DNA of 64,000 nt from Candidatus Omnitrophota bacterium. Its GTDB lineage: Bacteria > Omnitrophota > Gorgyraeia > B26-G9. A program made the position numbers and the translations under genes. Below the pieces are notes generated by a model. It worked only from the letters and a program-made list of their open reading frames with translations, was not told the origin of the DNA and did no database searches. The stretch lies in NCBI GenBank assembly GCA_043806135.1, contig JAZDHG010000098.1, forward strand, positions 1,660-65,659, given 5' to 3'. Shown here piece by piece: positions 2,894 to 53,209 of this stretch (position 1 is the first letter of the stretch; each line of letters begins with the position of its first letter).

Positions 2894-5800
2894 GTGATCA
2901 AAATGTTTAACGCTGGCAAAAAATATAATCTGGCTTTCAGAATAATATCGGCGTTCATTATCCAATCGTTTCTGATTATGGATATTGCTTTTGCTGCCGG
3001 CGGCGACCTGAGATGGATAAAGAAACCTCAAGTTCCCCAATCAAACCTGGCCCCGACTTTCAACATGGAAAAGGGCGCTTTCCGTACAAGATTTGACCTA
3101 ATCGTTTCTCTGATGAACGCTTTTAAAAATAAAGATGAATTGAACTTAGAGCAAATGCGTTCTATGGGAATTAAGTATTTTACAGATTCTATTCTTCAGC
3201 TAAGAGGAGAAAATGAAGTCCTCTATATTTATGAATCCGACAGCAAGGATATCCCGGCTTTTCTTCAAAAATCAGATAATAAGGTCCGCTTTAACGGGTA
3301 TGTGATCGCTGCGGTAACACTTAGCGAACTGGAAAGAGCGGAAAAACCTGCTTTTGACATAAGTAAAGAGGAGTTTAAAAAACAGGGGCTTTTTCCCCGT
3401 CTTAGAATAAAAGTCGAAGAGTACCAGCGAAGAAAACAGTTCATAGATACTTCTGGTCATTATAAGCTTGCTGCTTCTCTTTTAAATGAAGCAATTGATC
3501 TCCCGGAAATGGTCGAAGAACTGCTTTCCAACACCGGAAACCTTAAAAAACTTTATGCTGTTCTTGGTAAAGCCAAAAAGAAATATAATCTGGAAAAAGA
3601 AATTAACTCAAGCCAGCGGCTTTTCATAATAAATGCTTTGCGTGATTTTGATTTTATGCCAAAGGAAACTATCGATGAGCTGAAATGGCGTGCTGAGCAG
3701 GAAGGAATTAATGTAAAGCAACTTGAGCGTCTGAGTCTTGCCAAACTCCGTGTTGAAGGGGCAGCTCAGGCAATTAAAACACAAAGGCCGATCAATGTAT
3801 TTGAGGCTATCAAAGATATTACTTCGCTTGAAAAAGAAATGCTTGATCTTACGGACGAACAGCTTAAAGGGAAAACCGCAGAGTTAAGAGACAGGCTTTA
3901 TGGAAAAGGAAACTTTTCCGGCAAACAGGAAAATTGGGAAGATGTTTTGCCTGAAGCGGCGGCGGTTTTCCGCGAGGCGCTAAGGAGAAAACATCCTGAT
4001 CATCCGCTGCTTTATGATGTTCAGATGATCGCGGGTATTGTCGTTTCTTTCGGCGGCAAGCTCTTACAGCAGTCAACAGGTGAAGGTAAAACATTTACCA
4101 CTGCACTTGGCGCATACTTGCTTTCACTGCGTGATGAAATAAAAACAGGCGTGCATTGCGCAACTGTAAACAACTATTTGGCGCAAAGAGATGCTGAAGA
4201 GGTGGGCAACGTTTTTCAAGCACTGGGCATGAGCGTTAGTGCCTTAGGGGAAGATCATAAAGGTATAAAAATTGTAAACGGCCGCGCAGAAGACACCGAT
4301 CGCAGGAGTGCTTATGAAAGCGACATTGTTTACGGCACAGCTCATGGCTACGGATTTGATTATCTGCAGGATCATCTCAGTACAAGAGTCGGGACAAAGG
4401 TTCAGAAAGGGTTTTTCGCTTCTGTAATTGATGAAGCTGATGAGATCCTGGTTGAAGAAGCTAATACGCCGTTGGTTATGTCCGGCGCTGCTGAAGAAAT
4501 GCCGGAAAAAGAAAGAAATATAAATTACCAGATAGACAATCTCATCAGAAGCTTAATGACCCGTAATGAAAATCAGAAGTATTTCAAGATAAAGCTGGAT
4601 GGAGGAGACAGCCGCAGCGTTACATTTACTGAAGCGGGTTATGATTATATTTACGGCATACTTTCCGGCATGAGTGAAGAGGAATTAAACGACCCGAACC
4701 GGTCTTTTAATGAAGAGCTCGATAGTGAATGGGCATATTTGCGCGCCATTGCGGATAATGCCTTAAAAGTACATCACCTTTATGTTAAAGACACTAAGAG
4801 CGATGAGGCTATTGCAATCGAAGAAGGTAAAATTCGTTACGCGGTTGCAAACGGAGAAGTGTTAACTGTTGCCACAGGCCGAACCCAGGAAGGCCGGCGC
4901 TTTAAAGACGGAATTCACCAGGCATTAGAAGCAAAAGAGCATAATGAAGAAGTACTGGCAGGAATAACTCCGACCATTGAGGTAAGACAAGACCCGGAAA
5001 CAGTTGCCAGTATTTCATTACAGAGTTTTTTTAAAAATTATCTCATCCTTTCCGGGTTAACCGGAACTACCCAGGGTATTGAACAAGAAGTAGCGGAGAC
5101 TTACGATCTTGATACCTTGAATATTCCTACGAATAAGCCGAGCATTCGCCAAGATCTGCCGGATGTCATTTTCAAAACAAAAGAGCAGAAAGATGCGGCA
5201 GTAGCTGCGGATGTCATTAACGAGCATGAAAATGCTACCCCTGTTCTTATTGGAACCGGCGGTGTAAATGAATCTGCGGAAATGGCTCTAAAAATTCAAC
5301 AGGCATTTCCGCGGGCAGTGGGAACAGAAATCATTGATTCAAAAGAGGCTTTGATCAGCCTGGCAGCCAGGATTTTAAACCGCGAAGTTAATGAAAATAA
5401 TCTTTTTAAAGCACTGGAAGAGATCAAAACAAAGGGTGATTTCGGCAAAGAAACTCCCATATTTGTTTTAAATGATACCACTAAGCACCTCGAAAAAGAA
5501 ATAGTGCTGCTGTCCGGATTAAAGGGGTCGATAACTGTGGCTACGGATATGGCCGGCCGCGGTACAGATTTTAAACTGGTTGATTTTGCCAGGATGGTGC
5601 AGGGTTTGTATGTAATAGGTACTGAATATCCGGAAAGCCTGCGTACGGAATACCAGCTGCGCGGCCGAAGCGCCCGGCAGGGACAGCCGGGAAGAACGCG
5701 TTTTTATATAAGCCTTGAAGACAAACTTTTCACCGGTCTTGGCGCAGATATTCCTAAGAAGCTTGCAGATGCAATTAAAAATTCCGGGTCTGAGATATCC

Positions 5801-8800
5801 GGAAAGATAAAGTTGAGCATTACTGTCTTGCGCGGAAAACGCCTGAGTAATGCTTTTAAACAAAGACAGGAATTAAGTAAGGATGACGCGACCCTTAATG
5901 TTTATAGAAAGGTTATTTATAATTTGGTTGATAACCTTATCGATGAGGAACAACCTGTAGACATAGCATCAATTTTATTTTCTTTATATGGAGATAAGAT
6001 CAGCGCGCAGACCTTAGAGATGCAGAAGTCAGCGCTTCTTGAAAAGATGAGCGAGGACGATGTTAAAGCGATCATTGTTGATCTGCTTACCACGCACTGG
6101 ACATATTTTATTAACGGCCTTGAAACAATAAGTAAAACCCGCGGTTTATCAGATCAGCTTTCCGGAAAAGATGAAAAAGTCAACCGCGCTTTATATGAGA
6201 AGAAAACATCTGAGATATTCGATGAGATGCTATCAGACCTGAAGGAAAATGTATTTGCGGCATTGTTGATGCCGTTCATGTCGGAAAACGACAGGGCTGC
6301 TCTTAACAGCGAAGCAGAAGAGACTATAGCACTTGAAAAAGAAGGAGCAAGTATTTTTGATAAACTTGATCCTGAGGAGATAGCGCAAAGGATCAAAAAA
6401 GGGCTGAACATCACAGTAAAAGAAAAGGTGCCGAGTATTGCCGAGCGGTTCAGTAAATGGGTTTTTGGTGAGGAACGCGGAACTACAGCCTTATTAAGTT
6501 CTGTGCTTGCCAAAGGATTTTATGCGTTTATTACAATAGCAGGAATTTTTGGCGGGGTAATTACTCCTGCTAAAACTGAAGCTTCGATTATACCTTCTGA
6601 TGAAGGGTTAACTGTAAAAGTACAGGAAACAAAAGCAGAATTTTCCTTGAATGATAAGAGAAAAACACAGATACTGGCGGAAATTTCTTTTGCGAAGATA
6701 GCTCAGCTTGTCGACTTAAAACTTCGGTCTTCTGAGTTTCAGGAAAAATATACCGGCCGTCCAAAAGAGCAGTTACAAAGCCTGGCTTACGATGAAGTTA
6801 TCCGCGATATTATCAAAAAGTCAGAACTTGGCCAGGATGTGCTGGCTTCATTAAATGATATAAAGGAAGTTGAGCTTGAATCTATTCCTGTTGTGCAGAG
6901 AGCACAATCAGATGTTTTATCCGGTATTGTGGCTGATACGACGTTACAACAGGTTGTAAAAAAATTCCGTATTCCGGTAAAGACACCCTACCGAACAAAT
7001 CTAATGAGCGAGTTCGAAGCAATCCGTGACCAAGGACGGCGAATACATCAAGGTTTTGATTTCCTTGTACAGGCAGGTACGGATATCTATCCGGCAATGC
7101 CGGGAAAAGTAATTTTTTCAGGAGCACTTAACGGTTACGGGAACATGGTGCTGTTGGAGCATGAAGTTGCGGACAGCACAACAGGACTAGTAAATTATTT
7201 TTACACTCTATACGGGCATAATGAGTCGAATCTGGTTAAGGCCGGGGACTATATCGGAGTTGATACTGTGATCGCTAAAGCAGGAGTTACAGGCAACGCG
7301 TCATCAGCTACCGGCGGCTGCCTGCATTTTGAAATCAAACAAACCACGCAAAAAGTCACCAACTATGCTAAATACCTGAATTTGGCAGCTCTTGATCCAG
7401 AGGTTGTGTTAGGGAAAAATTTATATTTGCCTGCCGATATTAACAAACGCGAGCCGATTCTTGTTGCATCAGCAGATCCAAACATGCCTTTGTTCGCAGC
7501 GGATAGGCGGGAAAAGACAAAACAGCCAAAACCTGTTGAAGCGCGAACTCAGACAAGAAGTATTATCGGAGGCCAGATCAGGCATGAGGTAGCACCAGGG
7601 CAAACGCTTAGCATGATCGCTGAAAAATTCTTTGTTAACGGTACTTCCGGGGAAAAAATCAGAGAATTTTATAATAAACAGCATCCGGAAGCTCCTATGA
7701 AAAATTTGATGCTCCTTACCGGAAAGACACTTGTCCTGGATATAGACGAGGAGATAGCATCTTTATTAAGGCCGGAAGATAAAGACATATCAATACAAAG
7801 ACCTGATTCGGAGTTTTCTAATATAACAGAAAATATTCGAATAAGAGAGCAGGGAATAGAGGGGATAGTCAACTTGCCAGTGCGCCTTAAGGGTGGAAAA
7901 ACATCCTTTGAATTTGATGAACGCACGAAGTTTATGGCTTTGCGCGGTGAAAATAAAGACAAAAAAAATCCGGGAGTTGATTTTGTCTTAAAAGAAGAAA
8001 CGCCTGTATATGCTGCAGCTCCAGGAGAGGTTTTCTTTGTAGGTAAAGCAGAAGCATACGGCAATCTTGTTATTATTCATCATACTGTTAAGGATCAAAG
8101 GGAAAATATAAATCATTTTTACTCTCTGTATGCGCACAATAAGAGCAATAATGTAAAAGTAGGACAGTTGGTAGATGCGACAACTCAGATTTCTGTTGCC
8201 GGCAAAACAGGCAAACCGCCAATAAGTGATGCAGATGCTGTGCTTCATTTTGAAATCAGGCGCGGGATAGAAAAACTTGAAAATCATCAGGAATATCTAC
8301 ATGATGCTTCCTACAGTGCTCTTTATCCCGGAATTGCTCTGAAAACTCAGGTGTTAAATCCTGAATTGTTTTTCAATAAGACATTTGACTCAGGCCTTAA
8401 AGCAGGAAGGCTGATTGTTCCACAAAATGAATATAAGCCTTTATCTGCTCGAAATATTGAGCAAGATAAAGTAATATCCCGTCAGGATCTTGAGTATAGA
8501 ATTGCCCAAAGTATGAGAAATAGAAATTTAAACATTATCCCTGAAGGATTGATGAACGCGATTGTATATCAGCAGCTGGCTAAGGAGTTTGGAGTTGAGT
8601 TTTATCAGCCTGAGGCGGGTCTAAAGGGTGATGATTATTTTGAAAAACTTATGAAGGCGGTTCGTGCAAAGCATGGAGAAGATGTTCTTATTGTTGAAGG
8701 GCATTTTAATTCAGTACCAGAAATGATGTTCTTTTTTAAAGAAAACGGGATTCAATATATCTCTAAAGTTAAGCACGGTGAAGTAAAACAAAAAAAACAT

Positions 8801-11800
8801 GAATACCCAGATGTATCTGCAATGATTAAAGAATATGCTGTTGTTGCTGAATTCGGGTCTGCAGAATTGTTTTGCTCCTTACAACAGGAAGATTACCAGC
8901 GATATAAAATGGAATTCAAGAAAATGCTACAGCTGTATATCGATAATCATCCTGAGTGTAAAGGGAAGAAGATTGTTTTTATCCCCGGGCATGGAGGAGC
9001 AAATTATAAGACATCCTATTATATAGGGCCACAAGGACATTCTACAGGAGCTAATATTTCCAGATCAATTGTTAAAAGTACATTAGCTGAATATGATAAA
9101 TATACGCAGGATCTGCTGACTGCGGCTTTGGAAAAGGAGCATCAATTACCAAAGGTTGTGCAAGAAATAACTAGAACTGAGTTAGCGGTTATGGATTCAA
9201 GGTTAGAGCCTGTTGCAGGACAGGAAGGTATTGTAATTAGGGATTTAGCGCCAATTCCGGTTATATCAAAAGAAAAGGTTATTACTCCTAACGAAAAAAT
9301 AATCAAGCAGCCGGTTGCGCCGAAAACTCCGGAACCTACAGCAGGTGAATTCCAAAAGAAAAAATGGGAATATACAGTTAAACACGGTGATACATTGTCT
9401 GGAATTGCAAAAAAGTTGTTAGGCAGAGCTGATCTTTGGGAAAAACTTCGGGAGGATTATAACAAACAGCATCCGCAAAGACAGATACAGATAACTACTA
9501 ATGAAAATACGGGAATTATTAATGCGCTGATATATGCTGGTGAAAAATTAACTCTTGATATTGACCGGGATATTGCCGCATTGATTACGCCCCAGGCGCG
9601 GGAAAATCTGGGCATAGTTCTCAGTGCCGGCGGCCCGCCACCGTTAGCGCCTTTACCACCGCAAGAGAAACCTGAAATTACTGCGCCCCTGGCGGTCCCT
9701 GCTTATGTTGCAGCTGATGACAAGAAACAACTTGATAAAGAAAAGGTTGCTGTTCGTGCCGCAGAATTAATGGAAAAGGCGAAAAGTAAACAAGGTGAGG
9801 AGATATACTATCCGGAAAATCCTACTCCTGAGCGCAATTATGAACGCGGCATAGCCAAGGCGATCATACAGGTCATGATCAATAATAAGGACGGGGGGCA
9901 TTTTGCGGTTGCGGAAAACCCTGCTTTACAAGGTGAACTAAAAGATCTTGGTAATCTGCATTTTTATTTTCGTGATACAGGTAAAGAAATCAATGCCCGT
10001 GATAAGAGATTGTATGAACTTATTCAAAAAGATATAGCAGACAAGACAACTAAAGCAGCAGATATTGAGATATGGATCGGCAAAAAAGGAACCCCGGGTG
10101 CAAAGCCTTATATCCCTACGATAAAAGATGATCTTACTAAAAAAGAAAAACAGCTTGTATTTGATTCCTTGCTTGATATCAGTAATGTACAGCATTTACT
10201 GCATTTTTATAAATTCCCTACTCAGCTTGAAAAAAGAGACGAATTTGGCAGAGGACAGGAATTCACAAGCCCTACTGAAATCCGTGAGCATCAGGAGAAG
10301 GGATTTCCATTTGATATCTGGATTGAAAAAAGAGATACTCAGGAAAAACTCATCAGAATTTTCGGGCCTCAGAGTAAAGATTGGCAGCAATTTGTCAAAC
10401 CACCTGACCCAACAGATAAAGACCGGACATATATACAGTTTAAACCTGACTTCCTTGATTTGGTAAATAAATCCAGTGTTGTAAATAAAAAAGAATTAAT
10501 ACGGTTGTGGGAGGATTCCGAACGTACCGGTGATTATGCCTATCGCTTGCATTTTGGGTCAGTTGCGGCGAGTAAGACTCTTGAAGGTGTAAACAGTTAT
10601 GCTCTAGCTAGAGCTCTGCAGCTTGAAGTTGCCGATAAGATATTAAGCAATTTGGATATAGAAGCGCAACAGGGATTAATAAATAGGGCTAATTCTGAAG
10701 GCATTGTTTCTTTAGGTCCTAATGTTCCTGTAAAAGGAGTTGCCGGGCAGATACCGGAAAATCCAATGATGAAGAAAAGCCCTTATATAGGAGCTATTGT
10801 CGTTCAGAGAGAAGGCAACCCGGTAAAGGTAAATACATATTTTCAAAGCGAAAACCTTAATCAGAACTATGCTGAAGAACTGAAATTACCTAGGTTGGAA
10901 AAGACAGGTTTTGATATTGTTTACTATTTTTACAAGGATTCTCAAGGTAACATACAGCATAGGCGGATGCATTTCTTATCTTATAACCGTCAGGGAAAGC
11001 TGGTGGAGGTTAATGCCCGCTCTGCTCACGATATTATAGTTCTAGAAACTGACAAAAAGGCAGAGGAAAACGGGGATTGGTCAAAAAGCGATGTTCTATG
11101 GTTTGGCAAGAACGCAACCAATAAAGAAATCCTTAATGTATCTATCGGCACCCTGATGCATCAGATCGCTGTTGAAAACGCGCATAAGACCGCTAAACAG
11201 TTAAAGCGAAGGATGGTTTTTGAAGCCGTACTTCTTCCGATCAATGTTCTCGGCGGGTACGGGGTAGGCGGTATTGTATCAAAGTTGTCACAGCCATGGG
11301 CGCAGGCAGGGATACGTTTAATATATGATATGCTTTTTACTGCCTGGGAACTGCCGACAGGCGCGAAGATGCAAGGCCCGCCCAGTAAGGATACGGTTGA
11401 GACCTTTATTTCAAGTTATTTGTTCTTTACACAAGGCCCCGGAAAAAACAGGGAACAAAAAGGGCTGGAATTTATCACGACAGAAGATAAAAGCGGAAAT
11501 TTAACTATTACTGATGAAGAGTTTCGTACTTATGTTGAAAACCAGAAAAAAGATACAAAATCACCTCTTAACCTCTGGCTTACTATGGCCATGGATGATG
11601 AGGCCAGTAAAGGGTTTGTTAAATATGTGCAAGGGCAGAGAAAATTTGCTATTGCCATGTTCAGTATCGGGATTCTGGATAACCTGGCGCGTTTAAATAC
11701 AGAAAGCTATAATACACCGGGTAATGCGTTCAAAGATATTCTTGCCAGCCGGTATTTCAGTTTAACCGGAGAAGTAAATGTGTTGGCAGTAATCGGCGCG

Positions 11801-14800
11801 ATTGCCGGAAACGATGTACTTGGCGCCGGAGTGCATATGGGAGCTTTCCGCGAGGGATGGGGGAATTTCTGGGAGAATTATTTAAACTTCTTCGGTGTTA
11901 CAGTTGATGCTAAAGCTGTTATTAATACATTGAGTACTTTATTTACTAAAGACGGGAGTAAGGTATTTGAATATACTCCTGAAGTTCCGCAGAGACGTGC
12001 TTTTAGCCTTTACTTCCTTGGGTTCCCGATCATGACGTATTTTGACCTTAAAAACACAGAAGGTTTTATTAACTCTTCAACCTCGTTTGCTTTTGAAATG
12101 GAAAGCAGTAAGAATCCGTTTAATAAAAAATGGTGGAAAGATAAGGTTACCCAATACACAGAAGATGAATTTAAGCAGCTGAAACTGGTTCCGCTTGGCA
12201 AGGTAAAAGCAGAAGGTGAAAACGGACAGCCGATATGGAGAGTTTATTATATCAATGCTGATACCGGCGGGATTGTCTTCTTAGGTGATAAAGGGTACAA
12301 AAGCAAACTCCAGAGGTTAAAAGACGATGTGCAGCTTTTTGATAGATTTATGTCTTTAATCGGCGAAGGCGGCGGACGCATAGAAAAGAAAAGCTATGAC
12401 GCCGGTGCTGTAGTTGAAATAAAAAGAACAACACCATCTCAGCAGCAATCTTCACAACAGCCAATTCCGGATCTAACCGGGAAGATGCTTTCTTTTGCGC
12501 TTAATGTTAGACATCCTTTGACCGGAGTTTCTCCAAGCCATGTTTATGATACAAAGGCCACAGCCAACAATATTAACTGGGCTTTTACTTATGATATGGC
12601 TTTACAGTCTTTAGGGTTTTCCGCAGGGGGGTTGTCCAAAGAGTCGGATGCTTTACTTGATTATTTTGTTCAAAACCGTTGGTTATACCGTTATGAGGAA
12701 AAAGGTAAGTTTAACGGCGGAGTATATAATGCGATAGATATATCTCAACTTCCTACCGACACACAAAAACCCATTGCTGATTTTAGAAATGATGCAGGAA
12801 ACAGCAACTGGGTAGCAGCTGCGCTTATAAAGGGTGCAATGCGCCATGTTAGTGATCCTAATGCATGGCAGGCGGTTCTTGATGAGCAAAGAGAAGACAG
12901 GCAAAAGGCTTCGGCTAATTTCATTAAAACCGGAGATATTAATAAAATTTTTGAAGGCCGCGGGGAAACGCAGTGGCGCTTTTTAGGACTGCGTACTACC
13001 AAGCTAAAAGTTTTTCTTGAATCACTTGATGTGAAAGGAAAACAATATCTTTCTCAGGCAGAAAAAATTGCTGAGTCCCTGATAAGTTTGCAGGATAAAG
13101 ACGGCGGGATCCGTCACGGGCCGACAGAACTTAATATAAAATCAACAGAAGAAAATATAAACGCGTTTGGATTATTTATGATGCTTCATGATGTTACCGG
13201 AGAGAGCAAGTATAAAGACGCGGCTAAAAAAATCCTACAATGGCTGCCAAAAGTTTATGATACAACTCAAGGAATGTTTTTGCGCGGAATGCAAAATAAA
13301 TCAAAAGAGGATCAACCTGCTAAATGGGAAGTTGATCATATTTACGCAACAGATGCTAATGCTTTAGCAATAATCGTAATCGGACCGCAAATATTGGACA
13401 AATTAAAATCTAAAAATGAATATATTTCAGCGGATAAAATTATGGGATCGCTTGCGGACAGAAAGGTAGAACTGCTAACTGAAAGTGGAGACAAAATTTT
13501 AGGCTATGACTATACAGATAAAGTAGGCAGAGGAGACAGGGATGCTGTTATCTCACCGGAAATGACCGCTCATGTGGTTAAAGCGCATAAAGTAATGTCC
13601 AGATATTATGCTGAGCAGGGTGAAGATCTGATTGCAGATATTCATGCAAAACAGGCAGAATCCTTACTTACTAGTATTCAGCAATTAGCCGTTAACTCTT
13701 TACTTGGGATATCATTCCCTGACAGTACTCTGCCTAAAGATGCAATAGGCGGACAGATAAAAAGATATCATGACAGCAACTTTAATACTGTATCTTTAGC
13801 CAGCTTAAATTCTCTTTGGATAGTATTGGCCAAGGAAGATGTAAATCCTTTTGATGTACGCGCAAATGATCAAGTCCCTCTTATGCCTGTTTCAATAAGC
13901 GAGGAAAAAGGTTTTAATGCGGAGATAATAAAGCAGAAAACAACTATCCAGACTCTTTTGATTCGAAAACAGAATGATCCAAAATCTTGGACAGATAATG
14001 ATGAACTTGAATTGAACCAGTCCATTGAAAAGATAAATGAAATGATCCGTGAATATACAAAGGGTGCAATATTCACGGCCACAGAAGAAGATGAAACAAC
14101 ACTTAAAAGGATAATAGAACTTTTAAGTAACAAAGCCAAAGGCATACAATTAACTGATGCTGAAATAAAAGAACTGGAACAAAAGAAAGCGTCTCATCCC
14201 TATTATGAAGGGTGGATACGTCTTAGCGCGCTTTCTGAAAAAAAATTTATAATGAGTAAGTTTGAACAGATAAAACAGCTTCTAACTAAAAAAGCAAAGG
14301 AGATGCAGCTTAAGGAGTTAGGGCAAGAGTTGGATAGACAAACGGGTGTTGAAGAAAAGAAGCGTTTGCAAGAAGAGATCCAGAAACTTAAAGATAAAAT
14401 AGCTATTAGCGAGGAGTTAAAAGATCAAAAGTTTGTAGTATTAATCAATGAAACTATAGATGGCTACTTCGGTAAAGGAGAAGAAAAATCCGTAGAAAGA
14501 GAATCAACAAGAAATAGATTTTTTGGTAAACTTTCTAATACCCCAGCTGAAGATGTTGTTGTAGGTCTGATAGAAAAATTGTATGGCAAAAACAGGCTTC
14601 TCAGTGAAGATATTTTTAAGGGTGTTTATCAGTATTTCAATGCTGAAGATAACAGCGTGGTCACCGTTACCTTAATCGCTCCTGCACAGGCTATTGAAGT
14701 TGAAAGAATAAAAAGAGAAAAAGAACAGGAAACAGCAGCGAAACAGTATAAATTACTTGATGAAGGCGGAGTTATTATTACTGATAAATCAACGGGAAGA

Positions 14801-17800
14801 CTTATAGAGATAAGAGTTGGAGACAAACAAAAGGGAGTTGATGTATTAGGAGATTTTCTGGGTAGGATAAAGAATATGGTGGCTGCTGATGAAATCAATG
14901 CTGCTCAGATGCAGAAGATTATGCGCGATAGATGGGTTTTTACAATTCCAAAAACAAGTTCACAGGCTGTTGATATAAATGGGCAGAAGCAAGATCAAGA
15001 TATAACTGTTACTTTGGTTTTCCCGTATCATAGCGAATATGTGAGGGAAGAGACAAATTTAAGAACCGGAGAATCTGAACTTCGTATTTTTAATTACGGA
15101 TTACTTGATCGTGTAATTACCCGCGATAAGATTACAGTAATGAAATATAATGATCTTGATGTTGAAATTTCAAGCGATGTCTATGTGAATGAAACCGGCG
15201 AGATTATAAAAGATGCAAAGGAAGGAAGCTACTTACAGAAAACAGAAACTGTAGCTTTTGATACAAAGGATGTTGATCCTGTTTCTAAAGCGGTGAGCCC
15301 GGTGGTTATCAAAAAAGTCACAGACCCTGCTTCCCATGCGGTTAAATATGAAGTGTATAAGGATTATGAATTGCCGGTCATGACCTTTAGCGAAAAATAT
15401 GTTACGATTATTGAATTTGATGAATGGGGCAGAGAAAAAACAAGCAGAACTTATGTTAATACCGGATCGCTGGATAAACCGCGCTGGGGCAAACAACCTG
15501 TGCTTAGTTCAGAAGTTTTACCGCTTGTGGGTGAATTGGACGTAAAGGGCCGTCCGGCTACCTGGGATAAGAATTCAAAATGGTCAAGCAAGCTGGTAAT
15601 TGATCATGAAAGGAATAAACATTTTGTTGAAGTAAGGGATCAATACGGACGTCTTATCAAAAAGTATGACGGAAAAATGGAAGAAAAGCCAGGTGCCGAG
15701 CAGAACAAACTGCAGGTAATTCCTTACGGAGCGAATCAACCTTTTGAAATAGATGCCAGAGACCCGCAAGGCAGGCGCTTTGTAGTTGAGAAAGAAACAT
15801 CATTTTATCATAAATATGAGGAGCGCTTTGCTGCTCTTGGTGTTGATGCGTCTGTTATGAACCTATTAGGACTGCAGGGCACGGCTATGGTTGGGGAAAC
15901 TTATCTTTATGAGTTTAACCCGAAAACCGGACAAGGTAAAAGGGTAAGTGAAGATCCTGTCGGCAGGTCTGTGGCTCAAGTGCAGCGGCCTCAAAAAACA
16001 GGCATAGAAAAATACTTTGATGATCAAGGTAATGTTTTACTGCAGATGTCCGCACCAAGACAAAAACTTGTCTGGCAGCAGGTGATTGACAACCAGGGAA
16101 GAAAAGTTACGGATTATTATGGTTATTTGGTCGATGCTCAGGGTAGAAGAGTAACGGATATCTCAAAATATAAAGGTGATATTGATAAACTGAGATTTGT
16201 CAGGGAAAAGGTCTCTTACTCGATATATACGATAGGACAATTAAATGTTTTAAGAAAACAATACCCGAAACTCTACGATGAACTTAAAACAGAGCTCAAA
16301 AATTTGAATGTGGATATAGAATCAGAGCAATTCTTAAAAGATCTAATCTCTCAGGGGAAAATTGATGTTGCCTTAATGGGAGTAACATTTTCCTATGATG
16401 ATAAGACAAAAGCCCCTATTGAACTGGCAGCATTTTCCACAGTGCAGAAAAATGAGAAAAACAAATATATAAGTGACGGCGGAGAAGTTTTAGTTATCAG
16501 CAAAGATACACAGAAAAAGGAAGCTACTCAGCAGATAATCGATAGCGAGGGAAGAATTAAACTCAAGTACAACGGGAGATTTGACAGCAAAGCAAAACGT
16601 TTTATCAGGGAAAAGATAACCAAGTTTTTCTATACATATGAGGATCGTTTTGCCGGTGAATATTTCATTAATCCTGAGTTTGCCCGTGATATGAAAATCC
16701 TTGGCCTTTACGGCGTGGCCATGGTTGGAGAAACATTTACTTATGACGATACAACAGGCCGGCAGAGCAAAGAGCCTATTGCGTATTCTTTCTTGAGAAC
16801 ATTTAAAGACGGCAATTATGTTGACAATGAGGGTAATATCCTTGTTCAGATGACTAATGCCAACCAGCATATGAGCCGCCAGGATGTTATTAATAATCAG
16901 GGGCATACAATTATCCGGTATCTAGGAAAACTAATTGACCCCGAGACAAAGGAATTTGAAAAAGCCCAGTCATCGCGTTTTTTCTACAGCACGCAGCAGC
17001 TTGAGGAATTCAGCCAGAACGAGAAAACAAAAGGGCTTTATACTCAACTGATCAAAGAGTACGCGGCATTAGGCTGGGATATAGAAAGTCCTGCATTTAA
17101 AGCAGATCTTAATCGATATGGTAAATTCGGTGTTGCCCTTATCGGAGCAACCTATATCTATGATCAGGAGAATGATAAAGAAGTTGCTTTAATGTCTGTA
17201 TCTCGTATTAAGAAAAATGAACAAGGTGCACATATTGATGCTCAGGGTAATGTTCTTGTTGAGATGAAGAATATCATTAACAACCTGCATTGGCAGGAGT
17301 TAATTGACAATTCAGGCCGGATACAGGTTAAATATGACGGTGTTGTAATAGATGGCCAGTTTATTAGAAATCAAAAGACTTATTATTTTTATGATTACGC
17401 CAGTTATGATGCCTACCGCAAGGCACATCCTGAACTTAAGGCTGAGCTTGATGCATGGGAAGAAAAACTGACAAAACTTAAGAAAGTTAATGTTCAGGGA
17501 ATAATGGATGAACTTGGCCGCCGCAATATCGCTTTGTTTGGATTTACTTACCTTTATGATGAAGCGAATGCTGTAGCAGAAGATGTCATTAAAGAGTTGG
17601 GTTTGAATTCAGATAATAAAGAGCTTCTAAATGATATAAAAAATGAAGTATTTGCTATTGCCCAACCTGATAAGCAAAAGTCTCAGCTGGCTGTCAAAAA
17701 ATTAACTGAATTATTGGGTTCCAAATATAATTTTATAATTACAGATCAAAAGCTTGAGGGTATTGTAAAGGATAGCAGACTTAAATTAGCTGCATCTACT

Positions 17801-20800
17801 AAATATTCGCAAGTTGCTGATACAGAGGCTCTTGCTTTTTCATCTTTGAATGTAATGCAGGGAGACGGAACTGATGTTAAGGATTATTTCAGTGAAAAAG
17901 AGGGTGAAAAAGGCAATATATCGGTACAAAATGTTCGCCTAAAACAGCAGCTTACCTGGGAGGAAATAAAGGACAATTTCGGCCGTCCGGTCAAGGTATA
18001 TGACTATCAGCTTGGCAAGGACAAGAAATATCATCCCATAAAAGTCTCAAACTATTACTATGTCTATCAGGATAGGTTCAGCAAATTAGGTGTAACTGAG
18101 AGAGCAATGAATGAGATGGGCAGGCTTGGATTTGCCATGGTAGGTGAAACTTATCTGCTTAAACGAGACTCAAAAGAAGCGTTGGTATCTGTGTCTGTAA
18201 TGGTACCGCATAAAAACACAACGGGAAGTAAGTTCAACGATTATTTTAATAAAAGAGGCGAAATGATCATCGAGCTTGATAATCAGAGAACGCATCTTGT
18301 CTGGAGGGAAGTGAAGGACGCTCACGGACGCGTTCTTGTGTCCATAGACGGCAATAAAGAGAACGGTATCTTCAAGCCTCAGAAAGCAACAAGATTTTAT
18401 TATGATTTTGAAAAAAGAGTATTTGATTCTATTGCTACTAAGATGGAAAAAGACTGGGCAAAACTTGGCATAACAAAAGATAAGATGGGTGTTGAGATGC
18501 TCAATGCTATGTCGCGCCTGGGTAAATTTGATATAGCTACTTTAGGCAGTACTTATTTATATGATGGCCGTTATGAATACGGCATTAATCCTGATCTTGA
18601 TCAGCTGAATGAGAGTGAAAACAGACTGTTAGCTGTATCAATATTGGGAAAATTTGAAAAAAATGAATACGAAAAAAATGTTCCGGCTGGAGAAACAGAT
18701 TATATCAATGATGCCGGATATGTTAAAGCCATGATCTATGATGCCAAGACCAAGCTGCTTTGGGTAGGGCTTAAGGATAATAAAGGTGATATACGCGTTA
18801 AATATGCCGGTTATGAATACATGAACCCTCAGACAAAGCAGGATGAATTTAAATGGGTATGGGTTTCCAGAATAAATTATAATTGGCCTGATGAACTGGA
18901 AAACCTTGGCGCTTTAGGTATTGCTTATGATTCCAAGACATATTTTTATTATGACCCTCCTGCAGGGAAAAAGATAGAACGAGTTGATTTTCATAAGCTT
19001 GCTCCTGAAATCACGGAACTCGTGATTAGAAACGGGAAAAATGATCTGGAGGATATTTTAAAGAAGAAACTGGCTCCTTATGTGCAGGGTAAACATCACG
19101 CAAGAAAAATAATCAAAGAGATACAGGATCTTCCAAAAATCGATGATAATCAGGCAAAGAGCAATGCGATCATGGATATACTTGTCAAATATTTCTCTCA
19201 TAATATTAATTATGAATTCGGTGAAGGTGATTATCTGGTTACTGAATCCCAGATAGTACCTTTTAATTATGACCCCAATGATCCTAAAAAGAAATTAGAA
19301 TTTATAGATAAAAAAGGCAATGTTATCTTCCATATGCATCAGGTAAAAAGAAATCTTGATTATCAGGAAGTAAAAGATAATAAAGGCAGAATAATTATCC
19401 TGTTTGACGGTGATTTGGAGCCGGGGAAGAAGTTTGATTTAAGATATCAGGTATTTAACCGGAATATAATGTCTTTTTCCTATTTTGAAGATAATGATCT
19501 TGATGCAGTTGGGATTTCAAACAGAGGAGAAGCTTTCTTCTCCCGTACAAATGAAGAAACCCTGCAGGGGCTGTCTTTAACGACATTGGAAAAGGCAAAG
19601 GCTGCTTTCAGGGTATACAGAGGGACTTTAAGAGGTGACCAGCTTCTGAAATTTGATCAGGCAGTAAAGAAAGCCGGCGGTGAAGATGCTGTGGCGGCTA
19701 AGTTTCATAAAGCGGTTTTAACCATTCTCAAGTCAAATTACAGCGAGCCTAAAAATATACTTCGATTTATATCTCCTGCAGATATTGCGGAAAATATTTT
19801 TATACAGAGAAATAGTTATAATCTTGATGATTTTCTGGAAATGCATCTTGCCGGTATGTGCAGCGGATTGTTTGAAGATAAAGTCAGCAGATCATGGCTT
19901 GTAGAGATTGACAAAGAATTCTTCTGGGATACAAGCAGTGAACAAAACAAAAAGAAATGGCTTACAAGAAACGGAAATGATAAATCTGCGGCAAAAGAAG
20001 CATTGTTTAAATATATGAAATGGGATAGGCTTACTAACGATGTAAAACAACAATGGCTTGCAAGATACGAAAATAATGAAGCTCGGGCAAAGGAAGCTTT
20101 TTATAAAGATAATCTTACTTCTATAGACAGGTACATCAATGCTGAAGGAAGCATACAATACGAAGGAGAGGAGCACTGGAGATCAGACATTACCAAAGAC
20201 GGCCGGCCTATGAGCACAAAAGCAGATGTGCATTACCGCAAGATAAAAGATAAGCTCGGGCGGGTTATGAATCATATCTGGGGGTACTGGGATAAGCAAA
20301 GCGATTTTCGGGGCATAATGCAGCTTAGGGCCAGATTCGACACCTTATACGGTAAATTCGGTATTGCTGATGTTACAACTGCTTTTTTAACGGAACAGGG
20401 ATGGACATTGTTTAACTACTCAAAAGCGGTCAATCTTGAATACGAGACAGGTGCTGTAGACTATGCGGTTGTTAAAACCCTTGTTCCTGAGGACAAAAAA
20501 GAGGCGTTGAAGATGGATGAATCAAGAGCTGCTCCGCTTGAGAAGAAGTTTGAAGATTCATGGGTATTATTCCGTTTACCGAAGCCGCGTGCGGAATTAA
20601 TACGTGAATTAATAAACATAAGGCCAAGTACGGCGCAAGGAGATATAGCAGATAAAATCATTGATAAGATGATCAAAGATAAATATTACAAAGAAGGCTT
20701 TACAGACGAAGAAGATGTTGTTGCTTTTTTTGAAAAAGAAGGTATTAAGCTGGATTTTAAAACAGATAGTGAGTTTATTTCTAGGCTTTACAGAGGATTG

Positions 20801-23800
20801 CAGCACCGCACCGCAACAATCGCTGTCGCGCCGAAAGGCGATGCCGCTGAGCGTCCGAAAGTAATTCAGATGTGGATGGAAATAAAGAACAAAAAGGGAG
20901 AGCTTGAAATAATATTCAACGGCTATGTTGACCGCATTTCTGAAGCAGGTAAAAAAGGACAGATAAAGCAGATAGAGCTTGAAAAAACATATGTTACTTT
21001 TCTTGAATATCTGGAAAAGAAAAATATGGGTTTATCGCAAAGAAGTTCGACTTTTGATTTTAACCCAAATTTCATGAAAAACGGCCAGTCTACGGAAAAG
21101 ATGCTTAAGCAGTTTAAAGCAAAAATCTCCCTGCGTGCCTCTACAGACCAGCTGATATTACTGCCTGATGGGACGATGGTCTATGACATGAAAGATACGA
21201 GCAAAGATAAGCTGGCGCTGGTAAGAACTCTTTATTATCCGGACGGAAGAATTAAATTCCAGATATCCAAGAAAATGATGGGTGAAGACCCGCGCTGGAG
21301 AATTGATGTTTTTGATGAGCGCCAGAACCTGGTAGCAACACTGCGCGATGATACATCGCGTACGCCTGAAGAGGTGATTAGCAACCTCGGTAATATTGAA
21401 AACTGGCGGCCTTATGAGATACATCACTCTGTACATACTGAATATGCGCATACATTTGTGCTTACAGATATGGTAGGAGAGACCGGCATTTCCACATTTG
21501 CAGGACAGAAAGCGCTGCTGTTAAGCAACGGCAAGCCTTTGATTAAAGGTACAAATATCCATCAAAATATCGGACTATCGCAAAAAGAGCATTTTTCAGA
21601 TAAAGCGGTGCCTTACGAAGAAACAAAATATATTAATCGCCAGTTATGGTGGCTTTATTTTGATAAATTCCAAAATAATTTTATTAATCAGGTGGGTAAT
21701 ATTGGAAAACACCAGTTGGAGCGTTTTAATATCAAGCTGACCAGTGAGCGGTTTAGAGATGAACAATTGTTTGCGGATTTGCTGCAGGAGGCAAACGCGC
21801 AAAAAGCTAAGGATGATATTCAGCAGGGGGCCGCGGTTAAAGTAAGCTATTTGAAAGACGGACAGATGCAGGAAGTGGAGATCGCGCCGCGCGGATTAGG
21901 GTTTAAAATTAAAAAGATTTTTGACTATAAAATTCAGGTGCCTTTTACCGGATGGTATGTATTCTGGTGGACAATGCCGCTGGCTTTAGGAATTTATCTC
22001 TTAGGCGCAAACCGCATTACAAGCTGGTGGTGGGGAAGAAAAGCGCGCAAAGCAAAGGAAAAAGGCAGGAATAATATCAACCGCATGTGCGAAGATGAAA
22101 TAAAGGATCTCCTGCTGCCTGATAAGAAAAATGCGAAAGAGCTGGAAAAAACTGATGCCGTGAATATAGCAAGTCAAATTGTAGATCGCAGAAGGCGAGT
22201 AAAGAGCTTTATGGATGAAGCTGAAGTAGAAGAGTTCTTAGGTAAATTAGGTGTAACTGCTGAAACTATATCCAGGATCATGGATAATATTGTAGTTGCA
22301 GATATTATTCCCGACTTCTATAATGACGCGAATTTAAGATTGCAGCAAGTTAACAGGATGAATGAACAGGAACTGGCCAAATTACTGATGCAGGCAGGAG
22401 TTGAGAAAGAAACAGCGCTGAATGCATCCGAAGCCTTTGTCAAAGAACTGGCAGATAAAAAACCATTTATCAAAGCACTTGGTCAAAACGGATTTGAAAC
22501 TCTGGATCAGGTTAAGGCATTTTTAAGAGACCATGGCATTGCGTATAAGATTTTGAATACTATCTTCGGCTCAGGCGATCTTTTACGCGCACCGCCGCGT
22601 TCAGCGCAGTCAAGGCAGCAGGTAATCGATGAACTGCAGGAAATCCTTGCTGCTGCGGATATTAGCTTGGATGAATTAAACAAAGTATTAAGTGAAAAAC
22701 TCCCTGATCCAAAAGATTCTTTTGACTCTACCCTTACCCCGCCGATCGCGTTAATCGTGAAAAACCTTCTGGATGAAGAAGGCCTTGGTTTATTAACAAG
22801 AGAGCAATTTAAAGAAGTAATTAACGAGCTTATCGAAAAACTGCGTAATAACAAAAGAATCCCTTCTGCTATTGACTACTATGTCATAGAAGAATGCATA
22901 GACAAGGCCTTTAGTCCGATAGTAAAGCAGTATTTAATGGATTTAGACCCTAATAATGAACTTGAAGGTGAATACGAGCGGTTGATAAAAATGCGCTTAA
23001 GTGAAGTTCTTTCTGTAATGATAAAAAATCCTTATGGCATAAGAAAAAAAGAAAGTGGCACATACAAAGGAGAATATGAAATAGAAGAACCTGAAATGAT
23101 AGGATTGGATAAAGATAATGCTCTTAAAAAAGAAGCATTTGATGGAGAACCTGCTCCGTTTACATTGCGCTTTCAGGCATGGCAAAGTGTTTTCTTGCTG
23201 CCATATTATCCTTATAAGTTAGGATCAGCCTTGGCATCGCGTTCTACTTTAACCCGCTATTTGTTCCGTAAATCATTTGCTTTATATATGGATAAAAGAG
23301 CTAATGAGATATTACCTTTAATGAGATTACATGTTCAATTATGGAGAGCCATTATAGTTGATCAGATACAGGGCAAGCTGGAGCCTTATCGTAGAAATAA
23401 TATAGGGATAAATGAAAGGCTTATCGATGACCCTACGATATTATTTGGACAAGAAGATATGGACGATTTGTTCCGTTATTATGAAGACCCTATAAATGAA
23501 CTTAATATTAATTTAAGTCAGGAAGTCGGTAATATCAAAAATCAGCCTGATGAGAAAACTGCTTCTGATTATATACAGAAGCTTGTTGATAGCAAGCTTA
23601 AACCTGCTGTAGACAAAGCGTTAAACGAACACGAATCATTTATTGGTACTTACAGATTAGGCTGGCTGGCTTTCTGGCATGAACTCATGACTCCTTTTAG
23701 AGCGCTGTATAGCAAATGGACCGGTAAAGAACAGCGTTTTTGGACTGAAGGTACGGAAAAAGGGCCGGCAGGGTTAAAAAGCAAAAAAGGCAAACGTTTC

Positions 23801-26800
23801 TGGCAACAGACTATGATAGTTACGGCATTTTTCAATTTTATTATGGGATATATTGTGATCGAATATGCCATCGCCTGGGGTATTGCCTTAGGATTTCCTT
23901 TAGGGCTTGTGTTTATATTCTCAGTGCTGCCGTTCCTGATTTTCATGCCGCTGACATATTTTTCCATTAAGGAAATGGGTGTGACATTTGTATCCTGGTT
24001 GACGGAAAGAAGGCAAAAAATAGCTCCTATAAACAACTGGGTTTGGGGCTGGAGCCGGTCACGACTTAAAAACCATCTTGATAAGATATTCATAGATACA
24101 AATGGTGAGCTTAAAATAGAAGATTATTCCGGTAAAACCAGAGTTCAGGTATGGAATGAAGGAGTTGAACATTTATTTGAAATCGCAAAGATTTCTGAGA
24201 CTGAACGCAATGACTATTTGTTTGGGCTTGAGGATATGATTAATGCTGCTTCAGTGAGAAGCAAATTGAATAGAATGAAGCTTGCTAAGCCAAAGAATAA
24301 AGAAGCTAGGCAGCGTTTACGCAGATGGATTGCCGGATATTTGCGTTATAAACCCGGCATAGAAGGTTTTGAACGTTTGCCTACATTCAGCATTTTTATT
24401 CTTAACGGCGGTGGAGATGAAGCGTATTATTTCTTTGCTGATGATTTGCTTAAGCGAAGAGTTGAAAAAGGTGTAATAGAAGATACTACGCATTTGCAGT
24501 ATCTCAAAAACCGGTATGATGATGAGTTTGATAATTTGATGCATTTAATAGATACAAAATGGAACGTATTAAAGAGTTTATTAGATAAAAATGATGCAAA
24601 AGTTATCAGCGAATTTGTTGAGAGTATTCGGGATTTGAGTTTTGGCCAGGAAATTGATGTTACGCAAATTAGAGCAAAACTTACAGACCAAGAGTCCATT
24701 AATGAATTTGACAGCCTGGTTGAGATGATTGAGGATTGGGCAAATTACAGATTGTCTACAACCTGGCGCTGGACACAGTCTCATAAGTATATGAGACAAA
24801 GATATTATGAATATATTGAGAATTATTATCAGAATGAATTATTTAAAATTCTGAAAATGGAAAGAGATGGGAAAGAGTTAACAGAAGAAGAAGCAAAAAC
24901 GATTGCCGGAATGACGCAGGATCAGAAAGTGGAATATTATGAGAAAATTGCTGCTGAATATACCCGCCTGGTTGACTTAAAATATCAGTTTATCAACTCT
25001 GAGAGTGCTACTAAAGCGCAGAATAACCCTAATTTCCTGAGAATTAATTTTGATACAATGACAGAAGAAGATCTTAAGAGCTTGGATATCGGCAATGCAA
25101 AGCAGAAAAGGATCCTGATTGATTATAAAAAGTATAAAGCGGAATATATAAAATATTATATGCCAAGTAAACCTGATGGAAAGCAGATCAATCCGAATAT
25201 TATAGGTAAGCAAGGTGATCAAATCCGTTTTTCAAAATACGGCCAGGCAAGTTTTTCATCTCCTTATGTGCGCGGTGAGATTGTCTGGGGTATGGATACG
25301 CATCTTGAAATAGATTACGAAGAGACCCCCAATATGCTCCGCACACTTACAGAGTTTAATAGAAATCCAAAACTGGGTGTTGTTTTAAGCACTATTACAA
25401 TTTTTGTTGAAAAGTTAAATGCTATCGGTCGGGCTATGGCACTTGCTGAGCAGGCATGGCAGAGCTCAGTAATGAGAGCTAAAGAAACAGTGGATGTTCT
25501 TGGCTATTATGGAAAGGGAATTTACCGCAATGATTTCATGAATAAATATGAAGGGTTGCAGGATGATTATGTATCTGAAGATATTGTTACTGCTTTTATG
25601 TTTATGCTTTTTGGTTTGATGACTAAGCATGTCAGCTATCTGAAACTGCAATGGAGAATGCCGCCGCCGCTTAAAAGTATTATTGTTCCGCTTGCCAAGT
25701 GGGCAGCTGGAAGCGTGGAATTTCTCTTAAGACGCCAGTTCAAGCGTGTGCTTGCAAGCAGAATAATTCCATGGAATGAAAAATTTGGGACGATGGTTTC
25801 AGCGGCGCATTACTGGAAAAAACCGTTTGTAATCCTAGGGGTTATATCTTTTACAGTAGTTGGTCTTATCATGACCGGGCTTTTAATGCCGGTTAACCCG
25901 TTCTTGTCATTATCGTTTCCTCTTTTCTGGATTGTTATGGGTGCATTCTTTGCCGAGGCAATAAACTTGCCGTCCTTTTGGTCTCATTCAGAAAGGGAAG
26001 GAAGTTACTTGAAGGGTGTTGGGGCAACATTATGGGGCATTGCAACGAACTTTGTATTTTTTAATATGCTTATACCGTTATATGTTATTAAAGGCATAAA
26101 CGAAGGCGTCTGGGCGCGTCCGGTATTTTTGCCCACAGATAAAGAGCTCAAACTTGAAAAGCCGTTAAAAGCTACTTATGAATATTTCCGAAAAGAATTC
26201 GGCAGCTGGCCGGCCAAAATAGCAGCGGTATTACTGCCGATTACAATGCTTGTGGTTCCGGTAACTGTGATGCTTTTAGGCACATGGTTCCTGTATTTCT
26301 TTGCTTTGGGTGCCTGGGTATTCAGTCCGTATATATTGAGCTTTGCTATCAGAAGCAAGATACTTACAGTTTTCAATAAATACATAAAGGAAAAATTTGC
26401 TAAAAAGGCTATAGATCAAAAGAGAAAGAGCTTTGCACAGGTTTGGACGGAAAACTTCAGACAGGATATGTTTGATCAGAATATTTTCAGAGGAGTGTTC
26501 TCAGGTATAGGTAATCTTTATATCAGACCTGCTTGGAGAGGAATACATGAACGCTTATTTAAAAAAGGCAGTTGGTTTGATAGACACTTTTATGTTGTCC
26601 CTTCGACTATTCTTAGCTTAGTAGCTTCCGGGCATATTATTGCTATGCTGTGTGCACCGGCAATCTCAGTTTTAACAACTCCGTTTATTATATTGTTTCT
26701 CCTGTATTTCCCGTTGCGTTTACTTTTTACTCCAAAATATGATGAAACAACCTTTACACTTAAAGAGCAGTGGAAAGAAGCTGGTATAAATTTTAAACCT

Positions 26801-29800: not shown

Positions 29801-30283
29801 GACTTTGTGGAGGAGTTTGGCTTTGGTGATTTAATAAAAACGCAAACAGAGCAGATTGTGAGATTATTGCTTATACTCTATATGGTTAGTAAAGAAGTAA
29901 CGATTAATATATTTGATTTACCCGATGATCCGGCTGGTTTTATAAATGCCATGGAACATCTCAATATTAATTATAAAGCGATTGAAGATGAGATTATTAA
30001 CACTGATTTGAATGTTAAGGCAAAACTTGAAAGCGGGCAATCAGTAGGACTCTTTAATGGTTTATTAGAGATAAGGGTTAATGAAAGAGGTCAAGATAAG
30101 GTTTTGGTATTAACAGTTTCAGAGTCTGCTGACAAAGAAAAGATCATTGACTTAACACCGGAGATGATCATTAAGCCTGAAGCTCAAAAGGCTACTGAAG
30201 ACGCTTTAGATAAGGCAATACCCGGAATTGAGAAAAAATTAACGCTTGAAGATACCAGAGAGCTTATTGGTAATGCAATTTAG
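2894..30283 (+). CDS. giant multidomain protein (9129 aa): signal-like leader; embedded SecA-like ATPase motor; two M23 peptidase-like and two LysM-like modules; ~9 tandem repeats; polytopic membrane domain
   Basis: Uninterrupted 27.4-kb ORF. A good RBS (AGGTGA) sits 5 nt before the ATG at 2903, which is the likely true start; the GTG at 2894 is in frame. The SecA hallmarks span nt ~3830-5950. They include [110 protein letters not shown]...[76 protein letters not shown] and an HSD-like [25 protein letters not shown]. M23 motifs: HQGFD...CLHFE (7046-7345) and NPGVD...VLHFE (7966-8265). LysM-like segments lie at 7577-7745 and 9370-9566. TM helices lie at 21950-22020, 23800-24010 and 25806-27130. 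Confidence 0.85.
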   Translation: [9129 protein letters not shown]

Positions 30284-41160: not shown

Positions 41161-41171
41161 AAGAGGCCGCA

Positions 41172-41950: not shown

Positions 41951-42005
41951 TAATAAAATTATTTTACGAAAACGTGCAAACTCGATAACGTGAAAGGAAT
42001 ATGTC

Positions 42006-53206: not shown

Positions 53207-53209
53207 GCA

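Follow-up and report, generated by a model that had tools for sequence, protein, structure and literature searches.

In this study, we provide evidence that a giant protein of 9,129 amino acids (aa), encoded on a 64,000-nucleotide (nt) stretch of Candidatus Omnitrophota DNA (assembly GCA_043806135.1, contig JAZDHG010000098.1, positions 1,660 to 65,659; hereafter the window, whose own numbering is used throughout), carries a cell-wall cassette at residues ~1360-2240, in the order M23-1, LysM-1, M23-2, X, LysM-2. The cassette begins ~160 aa past a transmembrane helix, TM2, at the proximal end of a ~5,000-aa ectodomain. On balance, we favour the view that it serves as a membrane-proximal, extracytoplasmic unit for peptidoglycan binding and remodelling, most likely facing the periplasm. 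An earlier note, made from the sequence alone, had described two LytM-type M23 modules in this protein, each with a LysM-like module behind it, and all the motifs that it quoted are present at their given positions in the + strand open reading frame (ORF) 2894..30283. It overlooked the amidase-like domain X between M23-2 and LysM-2, which appears to be the best candidate for real hydrolytic activity.

2894..30283, + strand: giant ORF, 9,129 aa, numbered from the GTG at 2894
7040..7348, + strand: M23-1, Peptidase_M23 core, aa 1383-1485, with H1385, D1389, H1442, C1476 and H1478 (HDHCH)
7571..7777, + strand: LysM-1, LysM-type, aa 1560-1628, with the tail NKQHP...LVLDIDEEIASLL; paralogue of LysM-2
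7967..8263, + strand: M23-2, degenerate Peptidase_M23 core, aa 1692-1790, with N1692, D1696, H1748, V1783 and H1785 (NDHVH)
8519..9067, + strand: domain X, aa 1876-2058, conserved family without a Pfam match, with candidate residues E1884, H1937 (EGHFN), E1986 (AEFG) and H2033 (PGHGG)
9356..9595, + strand: LysM-2, Pfam LysM, aa 2155-2234, with YTVKHGDTLSGIA..., an insertion and the tail NKQHP...LTLDIDRDIAALI
9629..9718, + strand: proline-rich linker, GGPPPLAPLPPQEKPE..., end of the cassette, kept in homologues

M23 and LysM modules of the cassette

Both M23 modules lie far above the gathering score of 28.7 for Pfam Peptidase_M23 (PF01551; MEROPS M23B), with 72.1 bits (E 4e-20) for M23-1 and 72.7 bits (E 3e-20) for M23-2, and at E ~1e-20 a chance motif match is ruled out. 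They are 37% identical to each other (E 1e-27), and the homology reaches past the cores, aligning aa 1363-1513 with aa 1669-1823. Among solved structures, the best relatives of M23-1 are the active M23 peptidase 9gy1 and EnvC (PDB M23 match E 4e-8), and that of M23-2 is DipM, a non-catalytic LytM factor (E 1e-7). The closest relatives of M23-2 are M23-1-type modules of the same family (36-42% identity over 139-156 residues), which rank ahead of generic M23 domains, and for this reason M23-2 is best read as a diverged internal duplicate. Among NCBIfam models, M23-2 comes closest to that of the amidase activator ActS, yet every family-specific (equivalog) cut-off was missed widely (ActS 89 against 375 bits, DipM 71 against 740, NlpD 67 against 311, EnvC 60 against 270), and therefore the domain-level M23 call alone is safe. 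A word-indexed protein search with the cassette as query returned generic M23 proteins only, and a single-sequence AlphaFold model of M23-1 with LysM-1 (aa 1340-1669) was useless, with a predicted local distance difference test (pLDDT) score of 33. Hidden Markov models (HMMs) built from both pairs of modules found no extra copies of M23 or LysM modules in any frame of the window, which rules out hidden additional copies there.

The active-site residues of the two modules were compared with a census of 168 M23 domains, taken from the 150 best matches when 1.84 billion representative proteins were searched exhaustively. The full HDHHH set, which comprises the HxxxD pair, the upstream catalytic His and the HxH pair, is present in 133 of these domains. 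The relevant motifs stand at HQGFD (aa 1385, nt 7046), YGHN (aa 1440) and CLHFE (aa 1476) in M23-1, and at NPGVD (aa 1692), YAHN (aa 1746) and VLHFE (aa 1783) in M23-2. In M23-1, H1385 and D1389 align with the HxxxD pair of 9gy1 and of 152-157 of the 168 domains, whereas M23-2 retains D1696 and has N1692 in place of the His, exactly as the earlier note had remarked. Its second remark, that both modules read x-L-H-F-E instead of HxH, proved equally accurate, since the first His of this motif, found in 136 of the 168 domains, is C1476 in M23-1 and V1783 in M23-2. Both modules retain the second His of HxH, a zinc ligand, and the catalytic His ~30 aa upstream (H1478 and H1442 in M23-1, H1785 and H1748 in M23-2). 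In the alignment of metal ligands, which had been suggested as a check, M23-1 aligns with all three zinc ligands and one catalytic His in place and the other catalytic His absent, and M23-2 aligns without the catalytic His at the first HxH position and without one of the zinc ligands.

The first HxH His does not bind zinc; its proposed role is to activate the attacking water (PMC9662197), and LytM loses its activity when the residue at this position is replaced (H291A; PMC3046168). The earlier suspicion of binding in place of cleavage, in one or both modules, was well founded, because the residue that both lack is this catalytic, non-ligand His; M23-1, though, has not simply decayed, since all of its zinc ligands are kept and its Cys is conserved in homologues. 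The motif GGC[LV]HFEI[KR]Q recurs in the Omnitrophota protein P0010 and in two metagenomic loci, L002 and L003, which are only 50-65% identical in the M23 domain, and judged by this conservation the Cys is not the product of random decay. Another M23 domain from a large Omnitrophota protein (P0014) has Met at the same position. M23-1 probably still binds zinc and, lacking the water-activating His, would act either as a non-canonical enzyme or as a binding or regulatory module. M23-2, in which one zinc ligand and one catalytic His are absent, would on that account be a non-catalytic LytM-type adaptor.

The two LysM-like modules of the earlier note are also upheld. LysM-2 passes Pfam LysM (PF01476) with 24.9 bits against a threshold of 20.9, so that the proposed check with Pfam profiles gave significant matches for both M23 modules and for LysM-2. 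On its own, LysM-1 stays below the threshold (15.5 bits, E 0.017), but it matches LysM-2 with 33% identity (E 9e-13). This match includes the shared tail that had been noticed, with NKQHP at aa 1594 and aa 2190, and the unusual form NKQHP...LxLDIDxxIAxL is common to both modules. A LysM profile made from 10 modules of the window, its homologous locus L001 and proteins P0009, P0010, P0012 and P0014 matched the solved LysM domains of Bacillus subtilis LytE (E 1e-14), SafA (7e-8) and Kbp (2e-7), as well as the phage LysM protein gp61 (E 4.5e-8, with columns 3-59 of 71 aligned). By these profile matches, LysM-1 and LysM-2 are genuine LysM-type domains, of a subtype in which the second helix contains a Trp, the last strand is preceded by a variable insertion, and the C-terminus is prolonged by the conserved LxLDIDxxIAxLxxP.

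Domain X as a candidate permuted amidase

The statement that each M23 module is followed by a LysM module held for M23-1 and failed for M23-2, which is separated from LysM-2 by 365 aa containing domain X. In the exhaustive search, aa ~1870-2065 proved to be conserved independently in many large proteins (P0009, P0011-P0015, P0019, P0020, P0022 and P0029, with E down to 1e-51 locally), which share the motifs EGH[LF]N, [IV]EFG and PGHGG. All X relatives that bear NCBI names come from Candidatus Omnitrophota metagenome-assembled genomes, and X adjoins LysM, M23 or SLT domains in at least 10 Omnitrophota proteins. It is accompanied by LysM pairs in P0009 and P0012, by M23 and LysM in P0014, and in P0029 by a segment resembling an SLT lytic transglycosylase, read by eye; going by these domain assignments, X keeps murein-related company across its relatives. 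One short X-only protein carries the Joint Genome Institute (JGI) label 'N-acetylmuramoyl-L-alanine amidase'.

In native order, X went unrecognised: a Pfam scan of 11 X sequences gave no match, including to Amidase_3 (PF01520), a profile of native X had no meaningful match among PDB sequences, and a word-indexed protein search with X as query found nothing. The AlphaFold2 model of X (pLDDT 81.8, predicted template modelling score 0.83) suggests an Amidase_3-like fold in which the GHGG strand has moved to the C-terminus. The PGHGG strand of X matches the N-terminal motif of Amidase_3, and the DPGHGG strand that opens canonical Amidase_3 domains is the last strand in X, in all ten full-length members, so that the canonical order is not found in this family. 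When the GHGG strand of X members was moved to the front in silico and the sequences were scanned again, Amidase_3 became the sole Pfam match in two of ten members, with E 0.016 and 0.055 (15.7 and 13.9 bits, under the cut-off of 27). Permuted X also aligned with the PDB Amidase_3 sequence 3ne8 over 81 residues (E 0.44), an alignment that keeps GHGG, the ligand Glu and the His of the SIHxN type in register. The hhalign comparison with an alignment of Amidase_3 N-terminal fragments lengthened from 15 columns for native X to 101 for permuted X (probability 83%), in the same GHGG/Glu/HxN register. A word-indexed search seeded with an Amidase_3 fragment recovered short N-terminal amidase fragments only, which lack the region of the catalytic Glu.

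After permutation, H2033, E1884 and H1937 of X align with the GHGG His, the Glu and the SIHxN His of Amidase_3, and the Glu-to-His spacing of 53 residues equals that between Glu32 and His85 of AmiP. E1986 is near-invariant in the family. P0029 is the sole member to lose a candidate His ligand, and there both are lost together. It thus seems likely that X is a circularly permuted Amidase_3-like domain; we are less confident that it is an active amidase, and among the modules of the cassette it would be the likeliest hydrolase. A literature search, which was limited and is no proof of absence, found no reported circular permutation in Amidase_3.

The giant protein, its homologues and its genomic neighbourhood

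2933..3007, + strand: N-terminal hydrophobic, signal-peptide-like segment, aa 14-38, ...IAFA/AGG, conserved in L001, L002 and L003
3797..5581, + strand: SecA-like ATPase region with SecA_DEAD, SecA_PP_bind and P-loop_SecA (Pfam; SecA_DEAD E 1e-69)
6491..6562, + strand: transmembrane helix TM2, aa 1200-1223, dividing the SecA-like part from the cell-wall cassette

The true start of the giant ORF is likely the ATG at 2903 (codon 4), because AGGTGA precedes it by 5 nt. The SecA-like domain has intact Walker A and DEAD motifs and stays well under the equivalog cut-off of the NCBIfam SecA models (456 against 814 bits), and scans with domain models detected no SecA scaffold/wing domain in the giant protein. 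Hydrophobic helices were found at aa 17-35, 1200-1223 and ~6354-6372, with a further cluster at aa 6975-8075. Two Lys/Arg residues stand ahead of TM2 with a net charge of -2 behind it, and the stretch behind the helix at aa 6354-6372 is strongly basic; from this charge bias, aa 1224-6353, with the cassette, would most likely lie outside the cytoplasm. Such a placement, with the murein-directed domains outside and the ATP-dependent SecA-like domain inside, is a fitting one. The protein had been called secreted; it is instead a multi-pass membrane protein with a SecA-like ATPase, for which secretion is not demonstrable. Its N-terminus resembles a Sec signal peptide (MFNAGKKYN...IAFA/AGG, aa 4-38, window 2903-3007) and is conserved. 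The topology of the first 1,200 aa is paradoxical, since this signal-like N-terminus precedes a SecA-like ATPase that should stay cytoplasmic, and it does not fit a simple inside/outside picture. Two weak Gly-rich hydrophobic segments within aa 2778-2981 add further uncertainty to the topology.

Elsewhere in the giant protein, there is a weak GH76-like match at aa ~3380-3486, and off-diagonal BLASTP matches to the L001 giant (23-26% identity) indicate internal repeats at aa ~4200-5200 (window ~15490-18490). The C-terminal third, aa 6001-9129 (window ~20894-30280), including the cluster of transmembrane helices, has no Pfam match.

Collinear giant homologues are encoded at three loci, namely L001 (CAYTGV010000010.1), from a genome, and L002 (Ga0180007_10000218) and L003 (Ga0180007_10000972), both from a metagenome. 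All share the same N-terminus and the same downstream regions, which in the L001 giant are 62-74% identical to those of the window. The SecA-like region and the TM2 motif are also present in L001 and L003; L002 has a more divergent ATPase and more transmembrane helices there. The taxonomic labels conflict, in that L001, the closest genomic homologue, is labelled 'uncultured Planctomycetia bacterium' while the protein homologues are labelled Candidatus Omnitrophota. The cassettes differ as follows.

L001: LysM-1, LysM-2
L002 and L003: M23-1, LysM-1, LysM-2
window: M23-1, LysM-1, M23-2, X, LysM-2

M23-2 and X are thus confined to the window giant within this set of four, and a scan of 80 fetched related loci found X in none of them, which rules out X domains there. 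Judged by domain content, the LysM pair is the conserved core of the cassette, and the M23 and X domains are accessory insertions or losses. Such gain and loss of hydrolase modules shows a way in which giant proteins evolve, by cassette insertion around a conserved LysM anchor.

Several neighbours of the giant gene were also recorded in the window, across which no Rfam feature, rRNA or tRNA was found. Immediately downstream, the ORF 31049-31687 (+) has a weak match to IS200-like Y1 transposases (E 1.6e-7). Two large ORFs follow, 32409-39938 (+; 2,509 aa), in which N and C carbamoyltransferase domains are fused with a radical-SAM/4Fe-4S domain, and 42006-47975 (+; 1,989 aa), with HEAT repeats and weak, below-cut-off matches to DUF218 and Cupin_2. 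The 2-kb stretch between them, 39939-42005, has the lowest GC content of the window (0.316 in the 40001-42000 bin) and contains no ORF of at least 150 aa and no Rfam or tRNA match. Further downstream, the genes at 48471-63107 encode a major facilitator superfamily (MFS) sugar transporter, two GH2_C/GH72-like TIM-barrel proteins, a PilZ-domain protein and a TPR/PKD protein, and the same interval holds a pseudopilin-like (N_methyl) ORF, whose match is weak and below the cut-off. This gene set is the neighbourhood reported for Omnitrophota giant genes.

Proposed function of the cassette and comparison with known systems

The most likely purpose of the cassette would be to attach to the producer's own sacculus and make a local opening in it, giving the huge ectodomain both a passage and an anchorage, much as dedicated hydrolases do for flagella, pili and secretion systems. 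The LysM pair would tether the start of the ~5,000-aa ectodomain to murein, M23-2 would act as a non-catalytic LytM-type adaptor, and M23-1 would act as a zinc-binding, non-canonical enzyme or as a binding or regulatory module. Domain X, as a permuted Amidase_3-like zinc amidase, would supply bond cleavage between N-acetylmuramic acid (MurNAc) and L-Ala, and might be controlled in cis by the neighbouring degenerate M23-2 in the way that EnvC, NlpD, ActS and DipM control Amidase_3 enzymes. The producer's own sacculus is favoured over a prey wall because the cassette forms the membrane-proximal start of the ectodomain. Action on a cell wall, whether the organism's own or a host's, had been proposed in the earlier note, and it is still the sensible reading.

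An alternative, in our judgement an unlikely though serious one, is that the cassette is displayed at the surface or released as a predatory effector and degrades the peptidoglycan of bacterial prey or hosts, as has been proposed for the wall-active domains of Omnitrophota giants. Members of the SecA-domain giant class, to which the protein belongs, have been suggested to adhere to prey and digest its wall; the neighbourhood, in which a pseudopilin-like gene and PilZ accompany glycosidase-like genes and an MFS sugar importer, is as described for such loci; and the gain and loss of hydrolase modules between homologues fits adaptation to differing targets. The order of M23, amidase and binding domain is also endolysin-like, as described for the phage 2638A endolysin. 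However, a cassette ~160 aa past the anchor, at the proximal end of the ectodomain, is the part worst placed for contact with another cell, each M23 module is short of one catalytic His, a domain scan of the giant protein found no processing protease domain (C39 or S8), and the sole cultured Omnitrophota predator attacks an archaeon without murein. A third reading, which we consider somewhat more doubtful still, takes the LysM pair, both M23 folds and X as non-catalytic binding or docking modules that staple the giant to the wall. It draws on the absence from both M23 modules of the His whose loss inactivates LytM, on the common service of degenerate M23 folds as interaction hubs (PMC9662197), on homologue L001, where the LysM pair alone suffices, and on the divergence of X, too great for any amidase model. 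On the other hand, M23-1 still has its three zinc ligands (H, D and H) together with the second catalytic His, and its Cys is conserved, and the candidate H/E/H/E residues of X are almost invariant in the family; this retention, with the joint loss of both His in P0029, is the pattern expected of a working metal site.

The cassette would have a very different role if the N-terminal segment were a true signal or anchor that placed the SecA-like part outside and the cassette inside the cell, where its M23 and LysM folds would mediate contacts between proteins and have nothing to do with murein. The conserved segment does resemble a Sec signal peptide, down to an AxA site, a two-helix model with the N-terminus inside brings the chain back to the cytoplasm after TM2, and a 2026 survey predicts a mostly cytoplasmic bulk for many Omnitrophota giants. 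We nevertheless regard this arrangement as very improbable, given that the ATPase, its Walker A and DEAD motifs intact, must draw on the ATP of the cytoplasm, that the charge bias at TM2 and at aa 6354-6372 is opposite, and that SLT domains co-occurring in relatives argue for a murein context. To our knowledge, every characterised case of an M23, LysM or Amidase_3-type domain lies outside the cytoplasm.

Several points weigh against a periplasm-facing unit that binds and remodels the producer's murein. The choice of own wall over prey wall is a positional argument only, and M23 and X appear to be accessory, because giants homologous to this one lack them. In P0009, P0012 and P0022, X is found with no M23 at all, so that an obligatory LytM-amidase partnership is unsupported; the adjacency of M23-2 and X is shown, and activation of X by M23-2 is possible by analogy. 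Concerning X itself, the hhalign score comes mostly from the GHGG motif (35.7 native, 40.5 permuted), a Foldseek search with X against PDB and viral structures found no amidase, and E1986 is put forward as the catalytic Glu from its near-invariance and strand position, not from an alignment. Concerning topology, the N-terminal signal-like segment and TM2, read naively, would reverse the sides, with the cassette in the cytoplasm and the SecA-like ATPase beyond the membrane.

The M23 and LysM domains are ordinary in themselves and are already annotated automatically in such proteins; these calls are routine, since NCBI automatic names carry them ('peptidoglycan DD-metalloendopeptidase family protein' for P0010 and P0014, 'LysM ... 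protein' for P0009 and P0012). New here are variations on these themes, namely a conserved Cys-for-His M23 clade, an apparently permuted Amidase_3-like family without a Pfam model, and the fusion of both with a degenerate LytM module beside the anchor of a giant with a SecA-like domain. A bolder proposal, which we offer tentatively and hold to be improbable in its full form, is that X founds an undescribed, permuted branch of Amidase_3, so far confined to large Omnitrophota proteins, and that its fusion in cis to M23-2, as its own degenerate LytM-type regulator, and to the Cys-for-His M23 makes a self-contained 'wall-drilling' unit by which the 5,000-aa ectodomain is threaded across the sacculus of its producer. 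The giant proteins of Omnitrophota were recognised as a class only recently and are still almost entirely uncharacterised, and the role in cell-wall attack proposed for them rests mostly on carbohydrate-active domains. In the present locus, recognisable murein-directed parts lie together in a fragment of ~900 aa that is compact and expressible, which makes the wall-attack hypothesis directly testable. It also raises the questions whether an M23 domain can function with Cys in place of the water-activating His, whether a permuted Amidase_3 lineage has been missed by current domain libraries, and whether a LytM-type activator and an amidase can be fused in one chain.

The nearest functional parallels are the pairs of LytM factors and Amidase_3 enzymes (EnvC with AmiA/AmiB, NlpD with AmiC and ActS with AmiC in Escherichia coli; DipM in Caulobacter). 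Like the degenerate factors EnvC, NlpD, DipM and ActS, M23-2 has an M23 fold with an incomplete metal and catalytic set. Unlike in these pairs, the LytM-like and amidase-like parts are here fused in one 9,129-aa membrane protein, the amidase-like domain is apparently permuted and passes no amidase model, and no autoinhibitory helix was identified in the giant protein. With the M23B endopeptidases of the LytM/lysostaphin type, both modules share the M23 fold (E ~1e-20), and M23-1 also shares the HxxxD pair, the upstream catalytic His and the HxH ligand His; they differ in the first HxH His, which is Cys in M23-1 and Val in M23-2, and in the first ligand of M23-2, which is Asn. The combination of a more complete M23 with a degenerate paralogue recalls Csd1-Csd2 of Helicobacter pylori, an active and a degenerate M23 (PMC9662197), but the window has them in one chain with a LysM module between, neither has the full catalytic set, and heterodimerisation of the two would be hypothetical. 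In the staphylococcal phage 2638A endolysin, as it is described, a peptidase-like, an amidase-like and a wall-binding domain follow in the order that recurs here as M23-2, X and LysM-2, whereas the endolysin domains are canonical and active, its amidase is Amidase_2 and its binding domain SH3b. Finally, the giant protein belongs to the published class of Omnitrophota SecA-domain giant membrane proteins (West-Roberts et al. 2023 preprint; 2026 complete-genome preprint), with which it shares a divergent SecA_DEAD and preprotein-binding domain without scaffold/wing, many transmembrane helices, and pilin- or type II secretion-like, sugar-import and glycosidase neighbours; the 2023 preprint reports the same divergent SecA DEAD domain lacking scaffold/wing, many transmembrane helices, and type II secretion/pilin-like and carbohydrate-import neighbours for its giants. 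At 9,129 aa the window protein falls below the cut-off of 30,000 aa that the 2023 preprint sets for 'giant', and M23, LysM and amidase domains are absent from the main texts of both preprints, in which SLT is the murein-active domain noted.

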